Part shown: positions 1 to 6,412 of the stretch, piece after piece
How positions within the stretch are numbered: position 1 is the stretch's first letter
Layout: the number at the start of each line of letters is the position of its first letter
Source: a virus
Taxonomy: Duplodnaviria; Heunggongvirae; Uroviricota; Caudoviricetes
Reading direction: 5' to 3' (one strand)
Length of the DNA stretch: 6,745 nucleotides
Virus record (IMG/VR): IMGVR_UViG_2675903606_000013
Location: 1 to 6,745 of that record
Translations under genes and position numbers: made by a program
The notes under the pieces: model-generated
The model's input: the letters and a program-made list of their open reading frames with translations, nothing else
The model's database searches: none
Told to the model about the DNA's origin: nothing

Positions 1-76
1 GGCCCTTTAGCTCAGTGGTGAGAGCGAGCGACTCATAATCGCCAGGTCGCTGGTTCAAATCCAGCAAGGGCCACCA
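1..76 (+). tRNA. ileZ: tRNA-Ile2-like (anticodon CAU; formally also readable as Met)
   Basis: Hand-folded cloverleaf with canonical numbering: perfect 7-bp acceptor stem (GGCCCTT/AAGGGCC), D-arm GCTC/GAGC, anticodon loop CT-CAT-AA, T-loop TTCAAAT, discriminator A and encoded CCA. Closely resembles E. coli ileX/ileY-type tRNA as remembered. The symbol follows the 933W ileZ-argN-argO naming and is tentative. Confidence 0.88.
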
Positions 77-83
77 TCACATA

Positions 84-157
84 CCGCCATTAGCTCATCA
101 GGAAAGAGCGCCAGCCTTCGAAGCTGGCTGCGCGGGGTTCAAGTCCCCGAAGGCGGT
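84..157 (+). tRNA. argN: tRNA-Arg (anticodon UCG)
   Basis: Cloverleaf: D-arm GCTC/GAGC, anticodon stem CCAGC/GCTGG with loop CT-TCG-AA, 5-nt variable loop, T-arm CGGGG-TTCAAGT-CCCCG. The acceptor stem has one A-A mismatch (positions 6-67) and the 3' end is TCA, not CCA. The symbol is by position in a 933W-like cluster and is tentative. Confidence 0.72.
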
Positions 158-173
158 TCATTATCTGTATCCT

Positions 174-250
174 GCGTTGTTAGCTCAGCCGGACAGGGCA
201 ATTGCCTTCTAAGCAATCGGTCACTGGTTCGAATACAGTAGAACGCGCCA
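174..250 (+). tRNA. argO: tRNA-Arg (anticodon UCU)
   Basis: Cloverleaf: D-arm GCTC/GGGC, anticodon stem ATTGC/GCAAT with loop CT-TCT-AA, T-loop TTCGAAT, discriminator G and encoded CCA. One mismatch each in the acceptor stem (G-G) and the T-stem (G-A). The symbol is tentative. Confidence 0.72.
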
Positions 251-265
251 CACTTATTTTCCCTG

Positions 266-289
266 GCTCGCTTTTGCGGGCTTTTTTTT
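266..289 (+). terminator. Intrinsic terminator downstream of the tRNA cluster
   Basis: Hairpin GGCTCGC-tttt-GCGGGC (6 bp including one G-U pair) directly followed by T8 (282-289). Confidence 0.75.
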
Positions 290-500
290 AAATGTCTCAC
301 AATTCAGGCGGTTGACTGTTGTCTGGTTTGCGGGGAGTTTGTTAAAAGAAACTGGCATGGTGAATCCCCCTGTGCGGAGGGGCAATCAGCAACTGGTGTT
401 TTGTCACCGACCCTTATCCTTTCTGTGCGGGTTCAGGTGCTGATACTGAACTCACCGGGAGGCACCCGGCACCATGCAATGGCACATAGCGCCACTCTCC

Positions 501-527
501 AGCCCCTCTCCGGAGGGGCTTTCTTAT
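501..527 (+). terminator. Intrinsic terminator (+ strand)
   Basis: Perfect 8-bp hairpin AGCCCCTC-tccg-GAGGGGCT followed by TTCTTAT. Confidence 0.65.
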
Positions 528-531
528 GGAC

Positions 532-560
532 AAAAAAAGCCCGCGCAGGGAGACGCGGGC
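532..560 (-). terminator. Intrinsic terminator oriented for leftward transcription
   Basis: 7-bp GC-rich stem GCCCGCG/CGCGGGC with an 8-nt loop. The A7 run at 532-538 on + becomes a U7 tail on the minus-strand transcript. It faces the + terminator at 501-527. Confidence 0.6.
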
Positions 561-753
561 GGCAAGGAATAAACAACAAAACGTGAAGTAATATTTCAGC
601 TGGCGAATAATATCCGACAGTAATCACTCTGCGCAATAGCGCGGCCTTTTTCGTATTGCGGGCTGTTGTCTCTCTTCTGCCATTGTCCTGTAACTTCCGG
701 ACTTCAGCCCGCTCCTCATTTTACTCACAATATTATCCAGGCCGGGAGGATTC

Positions 754-2715
754 ATGGCATTTAAACACTATGACGTGGTCAGGGCGGCGTCGCCGTCAGA
801 CCTTGCGGAGCGACTGACACAAAAACTGAAGGAGGGGTGGCAGCCATTTGGCAGTCCGGTGGCCATCACGCCTTATACCCTGATGCAGGCCATTGCGGCG
901 GAAGGTGATGTCACCACACCTGTGGTGGTGAAGCCGTCGGATGGAGAAGGCGCAGTTATCAGCACCACCAGCAACCCGGAGTATTACTTTGTTGTTGCCC
1001 TGGCCGGGCAGTCAAACGGTATGGCGTATGGTGAAGGGCTTCCGCTGCCGGAGACATATGACCGTCCGGACCCGCGTATTAAACAGCTGGCGCGTCGCAG
1101 CACTGTCACGCCGGGTGGTGCGTCCTGTAACTACAATGACATTATTCCTGCGGACCACTGCCTGCATGATGTTCAGGATTTGAGTAAGTTTTCACACCCG
1201 AAAGCCAGCGCAGCTCAGTATGGATGCGTGGGGCAGGGATTACATATCGCGAAGAAATTGTTGCCGTTTATTCCGGCGAATGCCGGTATTCTTCTGGTTC
1301 CGTGCTGCCGTGGTGGTTCTGCATTTTTGGCGGGCGATGAAGGTACCTTCAGCGAATCCACCGGCGCAAGCGAGACCTCGGCACGCTGGGGTGTAGATAA
1401 GCCACTGTACAAGGACCTGCTTACCCGTACTCAGGCCGCACTGAAGGCTAACCCTAAAAATATTCTGCTTGCAGTGGTCTGGATGCAGGGCGAGTTTGAT
1501 TTGAAACAGGGTGCATACGCCACTCAGCCGGGGCTGTTTGATTCCATGGTGGAAAAATATCGTTCTGACCTGTCGGAATTCGGAGGTCAGTGTCTCGGGG
1601 GCTCTCCGTCATCGGTTCCCTGGATTTGTGGCGACACGACCTACTACTGGAAGCAGACTTATTCTTCGCAATACGATGCGGTGTATGGTGCATACAAGAC
1701 GAAATCCGCAAAAAAAATCTTCTTTGTGCCGTTTATGACGGATGAAAACGGGCGAAATGTGGGTACCAACGAGCCGTCAGAAGATCCGGATGTTGCGGAT
1801 ATTGGGTATTACGGAGCCGGTGGTCGAACGGACGCCAAAACCTGGACGACGGCCGACCGTAAAACGCATTTTGGATCATGGGCACGTCGTGGGATTATTT
1901 CCGACCGTCTGGCAACGGCGATTCTTGTGCATGCCGGGAGAACCGCTGAATTCATTACCGGAAAACAGCCTGATACGGTGAAGCCCACCGGACCTTCCGG
2001 TGAAGGTACGGAGAGAGAGCCGGAAGCCCCGGTCAGTAACCGAACCCTGATGAGTCTGCTGGCGTCCGGCGAAGACCTGGCATCACAGGGCTGGCGCTAT
2101 TATCACAAACCGGCGAGCGGAGACAATGTTAACAAAAACATTGCTGAAGCGGTGGTCAGTGATGCGGGGGCTACGGGAGGTAAGGCCCTGCAACTGAATA
2201 AACCGGAAAACCACATCTGGTTTCTGGAGCATGATGCAGCCGGACAGGGAGTGGAGTTACTGAAGAAGGGGGGACGTGTGAGCGTACGGTTTAAGTTGCC
2301 GGGTTCACTGGTGCCGAATCGGTTTGCCCTGGGCATTTACTGGCAGTTGTCGTCCCTGCCGGAGGGAGTGACGCTGGCAGAGGAAGGCAACGACATGCTG
2401 ATGTCCTTCTTCCTGCAGACGGATGCGACGAACCTGAACGCGATGTACCACAAGAAGCCGAATGCGAAGCTGGATACGTTCGGGGTCTTTGATAACGGAT
2501 GGCACACACTGGCTTTTGAGTTTGCCGGAAACAACAGCATTCAGGTGACGCCGGTACTGGATGAGAAACGGGGGACGCCGTTCACACTGGTGAAATCTCC
2601 GGCATCAGGGGCGGCGGACAAACTGCAACTGACAGGCATATCAAAGGCGGCGACATATACGCTGCTGATTGACAGTGTGAAGGTGGAAGTGAACAACGCG
2701 GATGCCGCGGCATGA
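754..2715 (+). CDS. nanS-p: Prophage sialate O-acetylesterase, NanS-p type (N-terminal DUF1737-like region, SGNH/DUF303 esterase domain, C-terminal lectin-like domain)
   Basis: 653-aa ORF with SD GGGAGGA 6 nt upstream of the ATG. The block YYFVVALAGQSNGMAYGEGLPLP...PRIKQLARR matches the GQSN catalytic-serine block of E. coli NanS/YjhS as remembered. Length and position (after the tRNAs, before the lysis genes) match the large esterase ORF of Stx-type phages. Confidence 0.9.
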   Translation: MAFKHYDVVRAASPSDLAERLTQKLKEGWQPFGSPVAITPYTLMQAIAAEGDVTTPVVVKPSDGEGAVISTTSNPEYYFVVALAGQSNGMAYGEGLPLPETYDRPDPRIKQLARRSTVTPGGASCNYNDIIPADHCLHDVQDLSKFSHPKASAAQYGCVGQGLHIAKKLLPFIPANAGILLVPCCRGGSAFLAGDEGTFSESTGASETSARWGVDKPLYKDLLTRTQAALKANPKNILLAVVWMQGEFDLKQGAYATQPGLFDSMVEKYRSDLSEFGGQCLGGSPSSVPWICGDTTYYWKQTYSSQYDAVYGAYKTKSAKKIFFVPFMTDENGRNVGTNEPSEDPDVADIGYYGAGGRTDAKTWTTADRKTHFGSWARRGIISDRLATAILVHAGRTAEFITGKQPDTVKPTGPSGEGTEREPEAPVSNRTLMSLLASGEDLASQGWRYYHKPASGDNVNKNIAEAVVSDAGATGGKALQLNKPENHIWFLEHDAAGQGVELLKKGGRVSVRFKLPGSLVPNRFALGIYWQLSSLPEGVTLAEEGNDMLMSFFLQTDATNLNAMYHKKPNAKLDTFGVFDNGWHTLAFEFAGNNSIQVTPVLDEKRGTPFTLVKSPASGAADKLQLTGISKAATYTLLIDSVKVEVNNADAAA

Positions 2716-3415: not shown

Positions 3416-3631
3416 ATGTACCAGATGGAAAAAATCACAACAGGTGTGTCATACACCACGTCAGCGGTGGGAACGGGCTACTGGTTCCTGCAGTTGCTGG
3501 ACAGGGTTTCCCCGTCTCAGTGGGCGGCAATAGGTGTGCTGGGAAGTCTGCTGTTTGGCCTGCTGACGTATCTGACAAACCTTTATTTCAAGATTAAAGA
3601 AGATAAGCGTAAGGCGGCGCGGGGAGAGTAA
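3416..3631 (+). CDS. S: Class II holin, phage 21 S-type pinholin (71 aa), dual-start motif Met1/Met4
   Basis: The translation ([64 protein letters not shown]) closely matches the S21 pinholin as remembered, with two TM segments and a basic C-terminus. SD GGAGA about 7 nt upstream. Lies immediately upstream of a SAR endolysin. Confidence 0.88.
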
Positions 3632-3635
3632 AGCG

Positions 3636-3968
3636 ATGAAGAAAAAATACGAACTGGTTGTTAAAGGGATAAATAATTACCCGGATAAGATTACTGTTAC
3701 TGTGGCACTGGAAATTGGTGGGTATCCGTCACTGTTGTTGCCAGATGTGGCGATTAGTCTTGACCGTACTGAAGGTGCCACGCTGGAGTTTTACGAAGCT
3801 GAGGCGAAAAAGCAGGCGAAGCAGTTTTTCATGGATGTTGCTGCCGGGTTATGTGAAGGGGATGGTCCGTTGCCGGAAAAGCGGCCCATCATTTTAGAGG
3901 CGCAGGATGTGTTGATAATCTACAGAGGAAAACTACCGGGAATAATTACTGGTTCTCTGAAGACTTAA
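3636..3968 (+). CDS. Hypothetical protein (110 aa) inserted between holin and endolysin; no TM segment or signal peptide
   Basis: Strong SD GGGAGAG 7 nt upstream; the start is 4 nt after the holin stop. Soluble-looking sequence. It sits where some E. coli prophages carry a ydfR/DUF1327-type gene, but membership cannot be verified from memory. Confidence 0.65.
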   Translation: MKKKYELVVKGINNYPDKITVTVALEIGGYPSLLLPDVAISLDRTEGATLEFYEAEAKKQAKQFFMDVAAGLCEGDGPLPEKRPIILEAQDVLIIYRGKLPGIITGSLKT

Positions 3969-4010
3969 CATATCCAGGGATTTGAAATCGATAAACCCTG
4001 ATAAATATCC

Positions 4011-4544
4011 ATGAACACCAAAATCAAATACGGCCTGTCGGCTGCCGTTCTGGCGCTGATTGCCGCAGGTGCGCCTGCGCCTGAAATCCTCGACCAGTTT
4101 CTGGATGAAAAGGAAGGTAACCACACCACGGCATACCGTGATGGCGCGGGTATCTGGACCATCTGTCGCGGTGCCATTCTGGTGGATAGTAAACCTGTCG
4201 TCCCGGGCATGAAGTTGTCGAAGGAAAAATGCGACCAGGTTAACGCCATTGAACGTGATAAGGCGCTGGCATGGGTGGAGAAAAACATCAGAGTGCCACT
4301 GACCGAACCCCAGAAAGCGGGGATCGCGTCATTCTGTCCGTACAACATTGGTCCCGGTAAGTGTTTCCCGTCGACGTTTTATAAACGAATTAATGCAGGT
4401 GATCGAAAAGGTGCCTGCGAAGCGATTCGCTGGTGGATTAAGGACGGTGGCAGAGACTGCCGTATTCGCTCAAACAACTGTTACGGTCAGGTATCCCGTC
4501 GCGACCAGGAGAGTGCGCTGGCGTGCTGGGGAATTGACAGATAA
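4011..4544 (+). CDS. R: SAR endolysin, T4-lysozyme-like (GH24) phage lysozyme R, 177 aa
   Basis: N-terminal Gly/Ala-rich signal-anchor-release segment YGLSAAVLALIAAGAPAP. Catalytic triad spacing E35-x8-D44-x5-T50 within EGNHTTAYRDGAGIWT. The size and sequence match the Stx-phage/phage-21 R family as remembered. Confidence 0.92.
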   Translation: MNTKIKYGLSAAVLALIAAGAPAPEILDQFLDEKEGNHTTAYRDGAGIWTICRGAILVDSKPVVPGMKLSKEKCDQVNAIERDKALAWVEKNIRVPLTEPQKAGIASFCPYNIGPGKCFPSTFYKRINAGDRKGACEAIRWWIKDGGRDCRIRSNNCYGQVSRRDQESALACWGIDR

Positions 4545-4633
4545 GCAGAATATTTTGCTGAAAAATAAGGCGTGGCCACGCGGGCGGATAACACGAAATC
4601 CTGCGAACTGGCGAAACGTAAGTGAATAAAAGT

Positions 4634-4677
4634 AAAAACCCCGTTTGTTGGCACCAAGCGGGGGTTTGTGTTTCTGA
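4634..4677 (+). terminator. Intrinsic terminator-like hairpin downstream of R
   Basis: A-run, stem CCCCG/CGGGG (extendable with A-U pairs), a 15-nt loop, then TTTGTGTTTCT. Confidence 0.5.
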
Positions 4678-4700
4678 CCTTGAGTAAGGCAAGGGAGAAC

Positions 4701-4883
4701 ATGGCGAAGTATAAACGAATTCTGTTGAGGTTGACCATGAAAAACGGCCTTGAACTGAAAGCGCCTGTAACTGATGACATCAGCAGAGCACTGGCTTTTG
4801 CCATTAAGTGGGTGGCGGTCGGTGTTGCTGTGTCCCCGATGCTGTATGGGCTGGCAAAACTGGTCATTGCGTTGAAATCGTGA
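4701..4883 (+). CDS. Hypothetical small membrane protein (60 aa; basic N-terminus, C-terminal TM segment)
   Basis: ATG at 4701 preceded by AAGGGAGA (short spacing). C-terminal hydrophobic segment [22 protein letters not shown]. The track ORF begins at a GTG inside the terminator hairpin, which is judged unlikely to be the start. Confidence 0.45.
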
Positions 4884-4897
4884 AGGGAGGATTAAGC

Positions 4898-5029
4898 ATG
4901 TCAGACAAACTCATAACGCTGGCGAAGATCCTCTGTGTAATTGTCGGCATTTCATTTTCACTAATGCTGGTTGCTCTTTTTCTTTCCATGGCCTGGATGA
5001 TGTTGTCTTCGTCGGGGCTGCTGGGGTGA
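4898..5029 (+). CDS. Hypothetical 43-aa hydrophobic peptide (single TM segment)
   Basis: ATG at 4898 with a strong SD AAGGGAGGA 7 nt upstream that overlaps the stop of the previous ORF. Translation [43 protein letters not shown]. Its stop TGA (5027-5029) overlaps the GTG at 5026 at the head of the Rz ORF. Confidence 0.45.
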
Positions 5030-6065: not shown

Positions 6066-6079
6066 TATCTGTGCCGGGA

Positions 6080-6412
6080 ATGAAAATGAAAAGAAATCTT
6101 CCGTTAATTATTTTGTTGTCTTCTCTGGTTATGGGCTGTACGCAACATAAAACAGATATGCCCCGACAGTTGGTGAAGGCATTACCACAATATCCGGCCT
6201 ATGCAGCGGCAAATTATATAAAGGGACGGGTTGATGTGAAGTTTGATATTGGTGCTGATGGTACTGTCACCCGAATTGAGTTTATCCGTTCAGAGCCGCA
6301 CCATCTGTTTGATGAGCAGGTTGTAAAGGCGATGGCAAAATGGCGATTTGAGAAGGACAGGCCGCGTAAAGGCGTGAAGAAAACGTTTATCTTTAGTCCT
6401 TCTGCACCCTGA
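6080..6412 (+). CDS. Lipoprotein consisting of a stand-alone TonB C-terminal domain
   Basis: Signal peptide MKMKRNLPLIILLSSLVMGC with lipobox and Thr at +2. The mature part (LPQYPAYAAANYIKGRVDVKFDIGADGTVTRIEFIRSEPHHLFDEQVVKAMAKWRFEKD...) aligns along its length with the E. coli TonB C-terminal domain as remembered, including the QYP motif. There is no Pro-rich spacer and no N-terminal TM anchor. Alternative starts are the GTG at 6071 and the ATG at 6086. Confidence 0.8.
   Translation: MKMKRNLPLIILLSSLVMGCTQHKTDMPRQLVKALPQYPAYAAANYIKGRVDVKFDIGADGTVTRIEFIRSEPHHLFDEQVVKAMAKWRFEKDRPRKGVKKTFIFSPSAP

Follow-up and report, generated by a model that had tools for sequence, protein, structure and literature searches.

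The tRNA-to-esterase interval of a tailed-phage sequence as a probable late-region sRNA module with an unoccupied cargo junction

The 503-bp interval that separates the last tRNA gene (argO) from the esterase gene in the phage DNA analysed here (positions 251–753 of a stretch of 6,745 nucleotides, hereafter the window) represents, with an estimated probability of about 0.88, a standard late-region module of lambdoid/Stx-type prophages, in which a tRNA-end hairpin is followed by an empty cargo junction, an STnc100 sRNA gene, and a convergent minus-strand RNA gene. This assignment builds on Rfam membership, homology, junction positions, and hairpins, all of them observed here. The initial annotation had described the interval as empty; instead, it holds a full-length STnc100 gene (143 bits) and a convergent RNA locus of the EcOnc08/21 type.

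In the proposed organization, the tRNA cluster would end in the terminator-like hairpin at 265–289, directly followed by the cargo junction at ~288–293 with nothing inserted. The STnc100-family gene, predicted to encode an Hfq-binding sRNA of 206 nt or more (326–531, plus strand), would stop at its own terminator at 501–527, while the EcOnc08/EcOnc21/EcOnc42-type RNA gene of the minus strand would start within or beside the esterase leader and end at 560–532, adjoining the STnc100 terminator. A lysogen is expected to make both RNAs independently of the late operon, and these would target host mRNAs or sRNAs in trans via Hfq. The back-to-back terminators would provide each RNA with the stem and U-tail typical of Hfq-dependent sRNAs, and would also keep convergent transcription from colliding. 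Upon induction, Q-modified RNA polymerase would continue past the plus-strand terminators and transcribe the esterase and lysis genes. Finally, the minus-strand cassette at 538–628 is predicted to be an exchangeable unit at the place taken by AsxR or AgvB in other prophages.

Layout of the interval

The 5' end of the window consists of three tRNA genes identified by ARAGORN, with a Met/Ile-CAT tRNA at 1–76, Arg-TCG at 83–159, and Arg-TCT at 174–250; the order ileZ-argN-argO and its annotation are identical in phage 933W and in prophage Sp4 of E. coli O157:H7 Sakai. On the other side of the interval lies the esterase gene, whose homologues are annotated as NanS, SASA esterase, or yjhS (Table 1). 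The interval had been described as about 500 bp long and devoid of any credible ORF, which agrees with the present data: all of its ORFs are mechanical, and the two tested, at 401–586 (+) and 433–636 (−), were rejected as coding candidates, as neither gave a Pfam match and both span terminator hairpins.

Table 1. Features of the tRNA-to-esterase region, in window coordinates
Feature	Position	Strand	Basis or remark
tRNA cluster ileZ (CAT), argN (TCG), argO (TCT)	1–250	+	ARAGORN and Rfam tRNA; lambdoid/Stx phage type
Terminator-like hairpin (265–271/276–282) with T8, directly 3' of argO	265–289	+	Last element of the left conserved block
Moron/cargo insertion junction, unoccupied	285–293		Block-boundary mapping in relatives
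STnc100-family sRNA gene (EcOnc05/EcOnc27/sRNA103/PasD relatives)	326–531	+	Rfam RF02076
Intrinsic terminator of the STnc100 RNA	501–527	+	Aligns to RF02076 model positions 175–206
Intrinsic terminator of the antisense-strand RNA	532–560	−	Hairpin and T7
EcOnc08-equivalent Hfq-bound segment	533–606	−	Sp4 peak 1179938–1180010 maps to window 534–606, 100% identity
Promoter-like site TTGCGC-18-TATTAT	607–636	−	TSS near 600; −10 TATTAT at 612–607
EcOnc21-equivalent Hfq-bound segment	612–697	−	Sp4 peak 1180016–1180101 maps to 612–697
Conserved short hairpin CTGCGC/GCGCGG with CCTTTTT	629–651	+	Stem 629–644; overlaps the minus-strand −35
Second promoter-like site ATGCCA-17-GATAAT	732–760	−	TSS near 725
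nanS-p-type sialate O-acetylesterase gene	754–2715	+	653-aa ORF; DUF1737, SASA, and DUF6645

The cargo junction

The stx operon of relatives such as Stx2_95 and 933W does lie downstream of the tRNA cluster and ahead of the esterase gene, as had been stated. When the window is aligned with the Stx2a phage Stx2_95, positions 1–288 match up to 37 bp past argO and the alignment restarts 42 bp after the stx2B stop codon, covering 293–995; therefore, the 1335-bp stx2 cassette replaces only the 4 bp at 289–292. The same junction is occupied by stx2AB in 933W and in locus L001, where window 1–288 corresponds to 1877–2165 (92.8%) and window 293–995 to 3501–4220 (79%). The spacer between stxB and the esterase gene in Stx1 and Stx2 phages is itself 486–510 bp long and homologous to window 293–753, so the length of the interval says nothing about emptiness and, being equally present 3' of stxB in toxin phages, positions 293–753 constitute a flank and not a slot. 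Thus, the view that the cargo site is unoccupied is correct in that nothing is inserted, but the slot is a point at ~285–293 instead of a 500-bp interval. Likewise, the alignment to Stx phages located the insertion boundary (288/293) and, at the same time, identified 293–753 as the conserved right flank 3' of stxB.

The boundaries were mapped in a sample of 123 loci with an STnc100 core, ~30 of which have the last tRNA ending ~106 nt before this core, as in the window. The left conserved block ends at 288–290 in the Stx2 and TerB-type representatives, just past the T-run of the argO-distal hairpin, and earlier (at 181 or 250) in the TolA-like and 118-aa-ORF loci, while the right block starts at 285–297 in 50 loci. 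Of 5426 complete E. coli genomes, 937 have the closed junction; partial matches in E. coli genomes stop at 285–290. The cargo found at the junction in relatives comprises stx2AB, a TerB-like gene with a small membrane protein, a 118-aa ORF, a TolA-like lipoprotein, and small membrane proteins, among others, which bears out the proposal that this stretch marks a site for foreign cargo. In Stx1 loci, stx1AB lies upstream of the STnc100 core, without tRNAs. A second recombination boundary exists at the STnc100 terminator (520–543), on the far side of which relatives have different sequence or another sRNA copy, or have TolA-like genes instead of the esterase gene.

Several of these loci have contents of their own. 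In L029, L053, and L045, the cargo between argO and the STnc100 core encodes a 167-aa protein, which by eye looks like a TerB family member, and a 54-aa hydrophobic protein; this cargo is frameshifted in L045, and L053 has ~600 bp extra with two small ORFs. Genes for small TolA-like lipoproteins (~142 aa, PGAP tolA) are located at the stx junction in L105/L107 and in L003 (GmF052), and one or two copies of TolA-like genes are located downstream of the sRNA in L013, L038, and L064, where the esterase gene was not found. In L007, L012, and L014, an AT-rich segment of ~630 bp with a 111-aa minus-strand ORF (core +150 to +780) replaces window 521–752, from the STnc100 terminator up to the start of the esterase gene.

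That the interval could be a functionless toxin-cargo slot, either unoccupied or emptied, whose convergent terminators only insulate, would agree with the absence of any cargo, stx included, from the tRNA-to-esterase interval, and with the fact that relatives have stx2 and other genes within the same boundaries. This explanation is hardly tenable in view of the full-length STnc100 gene and the EcOnc08/21 locus in the interval, the equal presence of 293–753 downstream of stxB in toxin phages, the very strong conservation of 500–715 among the sampled relatives sharing this block, and the lack of stx remnants. In a tblastn search of 251–753 with Stx1A/B and Stx2A/B (E ≤ 10), no stx remnants were detected, including the residual 3' stxB or 5' stxA fragments that had been anticipated, and TolA-like remnants were equally absent from the interval (tblastn, E ≤ 10). 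The junction also lacks stx-specific flanking bases, and the description of the site as emptied is thus not sustained. In phi296, which represents another "empty" type, the spacer measures 29 nt and likewise bears no relation to stx. The right flanks of stx2 and stx1 differ from the sequence of the window junction, so it is unlikely that stx once occupied the site.

A secondary loss of some other cargo has to be considered as well, in which the empty junction would result from a precise deletion, with the T-run that follows argO recombining with the one before the sRNA module. TerB-type and 118-aa-ORF cargo loci end in ...TTTTAAAT-CTCACAATTCAG, with a T-run and then AAAT-CTCACAATTCAG, and the TerB-type loci L029 and L053 have the exact 22-nt string TTTTAAATGTCTCACAATTCAG in common with the window junction. 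Since cargo ends and window junction share these T-run strings, T-runs flank the cargo on both sides. However, the pattern is compatible with either process, as insertion into an empty site would give the same T-runs as a deletion between them. Furthermore, cargo-derived bases are absent from the junction, and the empty form is the commonest class in the sample and is present in those 937 genomes, all of which makes such a deletion unlikely.

Similarity to the Sakai Sp4 copy and published Hfq data

The interval is near-identical to the spacer between argO1 and ECs_1088 in Sakai prophage Sp4. Window 1–900 shares 834 identical positions over 916 columns with the Sp4 segment from ileZ1 through the start of ECs_1088, and window 452–738 is 100% identical to it. 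Expression, Hfq binding, and northern bands have been reported in the literature for this near-identical Sp4 copy. In Sp4, Hfq-crosslinking peaks define EcOnc05 on the plus strand (northern ~222 nt) and EcOnc08 and EcOnc21 on the minus strand (northern ~271 nt each), with EcOnc42 of Sp15, a Stx1 phage, given as a homologue of EcOnc08/21 (Tree et al. 2014 Table S2, PMC4104026). On the window, these Sp4 peaks fall at 387–510 (EcOnc05), 534–606 (EcOnc08), and 612–697 (EcOnc21), assuming that the coordinates of the paper are those of NC_002695.2 at 1.18 Mb, which is supported by the fit between peaks and features. The Sp15 coordinates of EcOnc42 are offset by ~123–135 bp between the genome version of the paper and NC_002695.2, as judged solely by the position of StxS (EcOnc15), so the placement of EcOnc42 at window ~615–697 is approximate. 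The assignment of the minus-strand locus to the EcOnc08/21/42 type follows from its identity to the Hfq-crosslinked sites of Sp4 and from the Rho-independent terminator at 560–532.

The moron site downstream of pR' has been reported to have "carried convergent sRNA genes", exemplified by EcOnc27/AsxR 3' of stx2B, with a similar convergent organization in Sp3, 4, 9, 10, 11, 15, and 17 as well (Tree et al. 2014, PMC4104026). At least eight Sakai prophages are described as having convergent pairs of Hfq-binding sRNAs at their moron site (Tree et al. 2014, PMC4104026; 2021 review). The 2021 review uses the term dyads for these pairs and gives unknown targets for EcOnc42/21/08. Sequence variation in the spacer from stxB or the tRNAs to the esterase gene has been linked in the literature to the clinical outcome of O157 infection.

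Hairpins and terminators

The first 1200 positions of the window contain 6 terminator-like sites, compared with 1.6 ± 1.5 in shuffled sequences. Both of the terminators described as facing each other are real: the plus-strand hairpin at 501–508/513–520, followed by TTTCTTAT, has a folding energy of −18 kcal/mol (z −2.7), and the minus-strand hairpin at 560–553/546–539, followed by T7, reaches −16.7 kcal/mol (z −3.7), a value equalled by none of 200 shuffles. The role assigned to them as boundaries of the cargo site has to be replaced, as they are the 3' ends of two RNA genes, equivalent to STnc100/AsxR in 933W and to STnc100/AgvB in L045. In fact, the site at 532–560 (−) corresponds to the position of the AsxR terminator in the former and of the AgvB terminator in the latter, and all of them adjoin STnc100.

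Two plus-strand hairpins had been overlooked, at 265–282 with T8 and at 629–644 with CCTTTTT. The first of them (−11.4 kcal/mol, z −2.9) is kept in stx2-, TerB-, and other cargo-bearing loci, and the equivalent of the 265–289 element in 933W is annotated as a [quoted passage not shown]. As for the second, an L019-type relative has a hairpin homologous to 629–651, followed by T8, directly 3' of a shorter STnc100 variant.

The 7-bp inverted repeat that had also been pointed out does exist, although its arms are at 632–638/654–660 and do not start at 634. It was rejected as a functional hairpin: it falls outside the favoured fold, in a region that folds no better than shuffles (z −0.13, +0.08). 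Among relatives, one position is compensated and another broken, some variants lose both, and the repeat is broken in many of them. The repeat is no better than chance.

The STnc100-family sRNA gene

The match to RF02076 is full length (model positions 1–206 of 206), scores 143.2 bits (gathering score, 47), and has an E-value of 1.3e-32; the true 5' end of the RNA is probably somewhat upstream of 326. RNAalifold, applied to 78 unique variants, keeps four core helices (358–362/470–474, 367–371/378–382, 429–435/447–453, and 455–459/465–469) in 75–78 of the 78. Compensatory changes among these variants occur at 431:451 (AU in 47, GC in 26) and at 435:447, although the support from covariation is modest because most pairs are invariant. 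The 5' part and the internal segment at ~384–426 vary.

This internal segment is hypervariable between otherwise near-identical copies. With respect to Sp4, it exhibits substitutions and a 15-nt length difference, and the homology to many loci stops at 383–394 and restarts at 427–448. The segment 384–426 may be a swappable target-recognition region and, given that 391–426 differs from the Sp4 copy, the targets of the window RNA may differ too.

The gene has the late-region context of its family, with Q, tRNAs, or stx on the 5' side and the esterase and lysis genes on the 3' side. Members of the family are also located 3' of stx2B (Stx2_95, 933W), 3' of stx1B (VT1-Sakai), and in stx-negative relatives; in the published literature, STnc100 has been placed 75 nt downstream of stx2, overlapping EcOnc27, and has been related to PasD. 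Tandem STnc100-family genes are present between the tRNAs and the esterase gene in L032 (4210–4400 and 4678–4887), and also in L017 and L022; in these three tandems, the EcOnc08-type cassette only appears after the second STnc100 copy.

No sigma-70-like promoter for the plus-strand RNA was detected by a promoter tool or by a relaxed scan of 200–360, so this RNA may be processed from a longer transcript. A conserved block, TCACAATTCAG-N4-TTGAC, is located at 297–316, with no confident −10/−35 assignment. This lack of a promoter of its own, together with the location of all the elements upstream of nanS-p on the late transcript, could suggest that the interval is the 5' leader or regulatory region of the esterase gene, in which the hairpins would attenuate late transcription and STnc100 would be a structured leader, not an independent sRNA. 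In the same direction, Stx2 phages have no terminator between stx2B and STnc100, so the STnc100 RNA could be derived from a 3'-UTR or a leader. However, the STnc100 unit of relatives is separated from nanS-p by unrelated sequence, is arranged in tandem, or lies upstream of TolA-like genes, and so behaves as an autonomous module. Moreover, homologues are detected on northern blots as discrete RNAs of ~222–247 nt, and the 247-nt EcOnc27 is destabilized without Hfq (Tree et al. 2014, PMC4104026), while a minus-strand terminator cannot act on a plus-strand leader. An exclusive leader function is thus very unlikely, and an STnc100 gene within a late-region module is the preferred reading.

The minus-strand RNA locus

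From position 760 to the TTGCGCAG motif at 636–629, the minus strand of the window aligns as a homologue of the regions upstream of AsxR and AgvB. The TTGCGCAG motif represents the −35 of the first promoter-like site, and past it the homology to the AsxR and AgvB loci ends, giving way to another spacer, −10, RNA body, and terminator. Consistently, the element was rejected as an Rfam member of AsxR (RF02703) or AgvB (RF02702), as no covariance match was obtained even at relaxed thresholds (E ≤ 1 on the whole window, E ≤ 10 on 500–760).

The promoter-like site at 607–636 predicts a short minus-strand form of ~68 nt (600 to 533). The site at 732–760 could start a longer antisense-strand RNA, but its conservation is confounded because it overlaps the ribosome-binding site and the start codon of the esterase gene. 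The EcOnc21-equivalent segment probably belongs to a longer antisense-strand transcript. The sizes predicted from the two sites (~68 or ~193 nt) differ from the northern band of the homologues (~271 nt), and the candidate 5' ends are therefore ~600, ~725, or, if the 271-nt northern size is exact, ~803.

Based on this organization, it can be proposed, only tentatively and as a rather doubtful reading, that 538–628 (−) provides the exchangeable "anti-sRNA" position with a third cassette, not homologous to the other two, which under the AsxR/AgvB promoter context would yield an Hfq-dependent RNA of ~68 nt; alternatively or additionally, a longer form (~190–270 nt), antisense to the leader, ribosome-binding site, and start codon of the esterase gene, would control nanS-p in cis. 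The ~68-nt RNA would expose a single-stranded G/U-rich stretch, GUUUUGUUGUUUAUU. If true, either reading would give EcOnc08/21/42 a function. A duplex between the G/U-rich stretch and the 5' end of AgvB, which is C/A-rich, was also considered and rejected, as its energy (−10.5 kcal/mol) was matched by 12% of the shuffles (−8.1 ± 1.9 kcal/mol).

The esterase-to-lysis region

Downstream of the interval, a minus-strand terminator-like hairpin at 2716–2737 (CTGCCGCTGGCGG and then T7) adjoins the stop codon of the esterase gene, and may be the 3' end of a further antisense-strand sRNA in the spacer between the esterase gene and the DUF1378 gene. This spacer is the reported region of PasA/PasC (Zhu et al. 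2026) and of EcOnc52 (Tree et al. 2014). The identification of this terminator with the EcOnc52 of Sp4 was abandoned as unmappable, as IS629 interrupts Sp4 at this point. A DUF1327 ORF between the holin and lysozyme genes (3636–3968) and a 113-aa ORF with a TonB C-terminal domain after the Rz gene (6071–6412) look like further small moron-like genes of the lysis region. The gap of ~480 bp between the lysozyme and Rz genes (4545–5025) contains short overlapping ORFs only and a plus-strand terminator-like hairpin at 4639–4663; 933W has an ant gene at this position.

Significance and comparison with known systems

The convergent sRNA dyad and the right flank of the cargo site are already known from the literature, and the current understanding is unchanged by the present result. 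The remaining aspect is that, from its sequence, the EcOnc08/21/42-type RNA appears to be a third type of cassette in the AsxR/AgvB position. For annotation purposes, the DNA 3' of a prophage tRNA cluster or of stxB should not be read as empty, since a conserved pair of Hfq-binding RNAs located there reprograms host regulation, with AsxR and AgvB as the studied examples. In addition, the junction at ~288–293 is a practical landmark for toxin or moron cargo in new prophages.

Like AsxR and AgvB, the minus-strand element of the window is convergent with and adjoins STnc100, lies behind a shared upstream sequence that includes the TTGCGC −35, and ends at an intrinsic terminator whose tail is U7. 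The layout is the same in 933W, where STnc100 (3778–3983, +) adjoins AsxR (4037–3985, −), and in L045, where it adjoins AgvB. Unlike these anti-sRNAs, however, the window element does not hold their conserved ~42-nt 3' region, and its body and terminator are unrelated; AsxR and AgvB are only 51–60 nt long and belong to a class that sponges core sRNAs through a variable 5' seed, whereas the homologues of the window element are ~271 nt on northern blots. With respect to EcOnc08/21 of Sp4, the window is 100% identical across both Hfq peaks, with the same strand and terminator, and the comparison with Sp4 detected no difference in the sequence of these peaks. The EcOnc08/21/42-type sequence of the window is also present in VT1-Sakai (Sp15), 3' of stx1B.

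On the plus strand, EcOnc27/sRNA103 (Sp5/933W) and EcOnc05 (Sp4) are reports of STnc100, to which PasD1 and PasD2 of EPEC are related. The window copy shares with known STnc100 genes the terminator and the site, which follows tRNAs or stx and precedes the esterase gene; compared with the Sp4 copy, it is near-identical outside one internal segment. It differs in its variable segment 391–426, which is unlike those of Sp4 and 933W, and in having no toxin operon upstream. Finally, the window matches the stx moron site of 933W, Sp5, and Stx2_95 in both flanks: the left one comprises the tRNAs and the hairpin, and the right one STnc100, the dyad, and nanS-p. It differs from this site in holding 4 bp, without stxAB, in place of the 1335-bp cassette.
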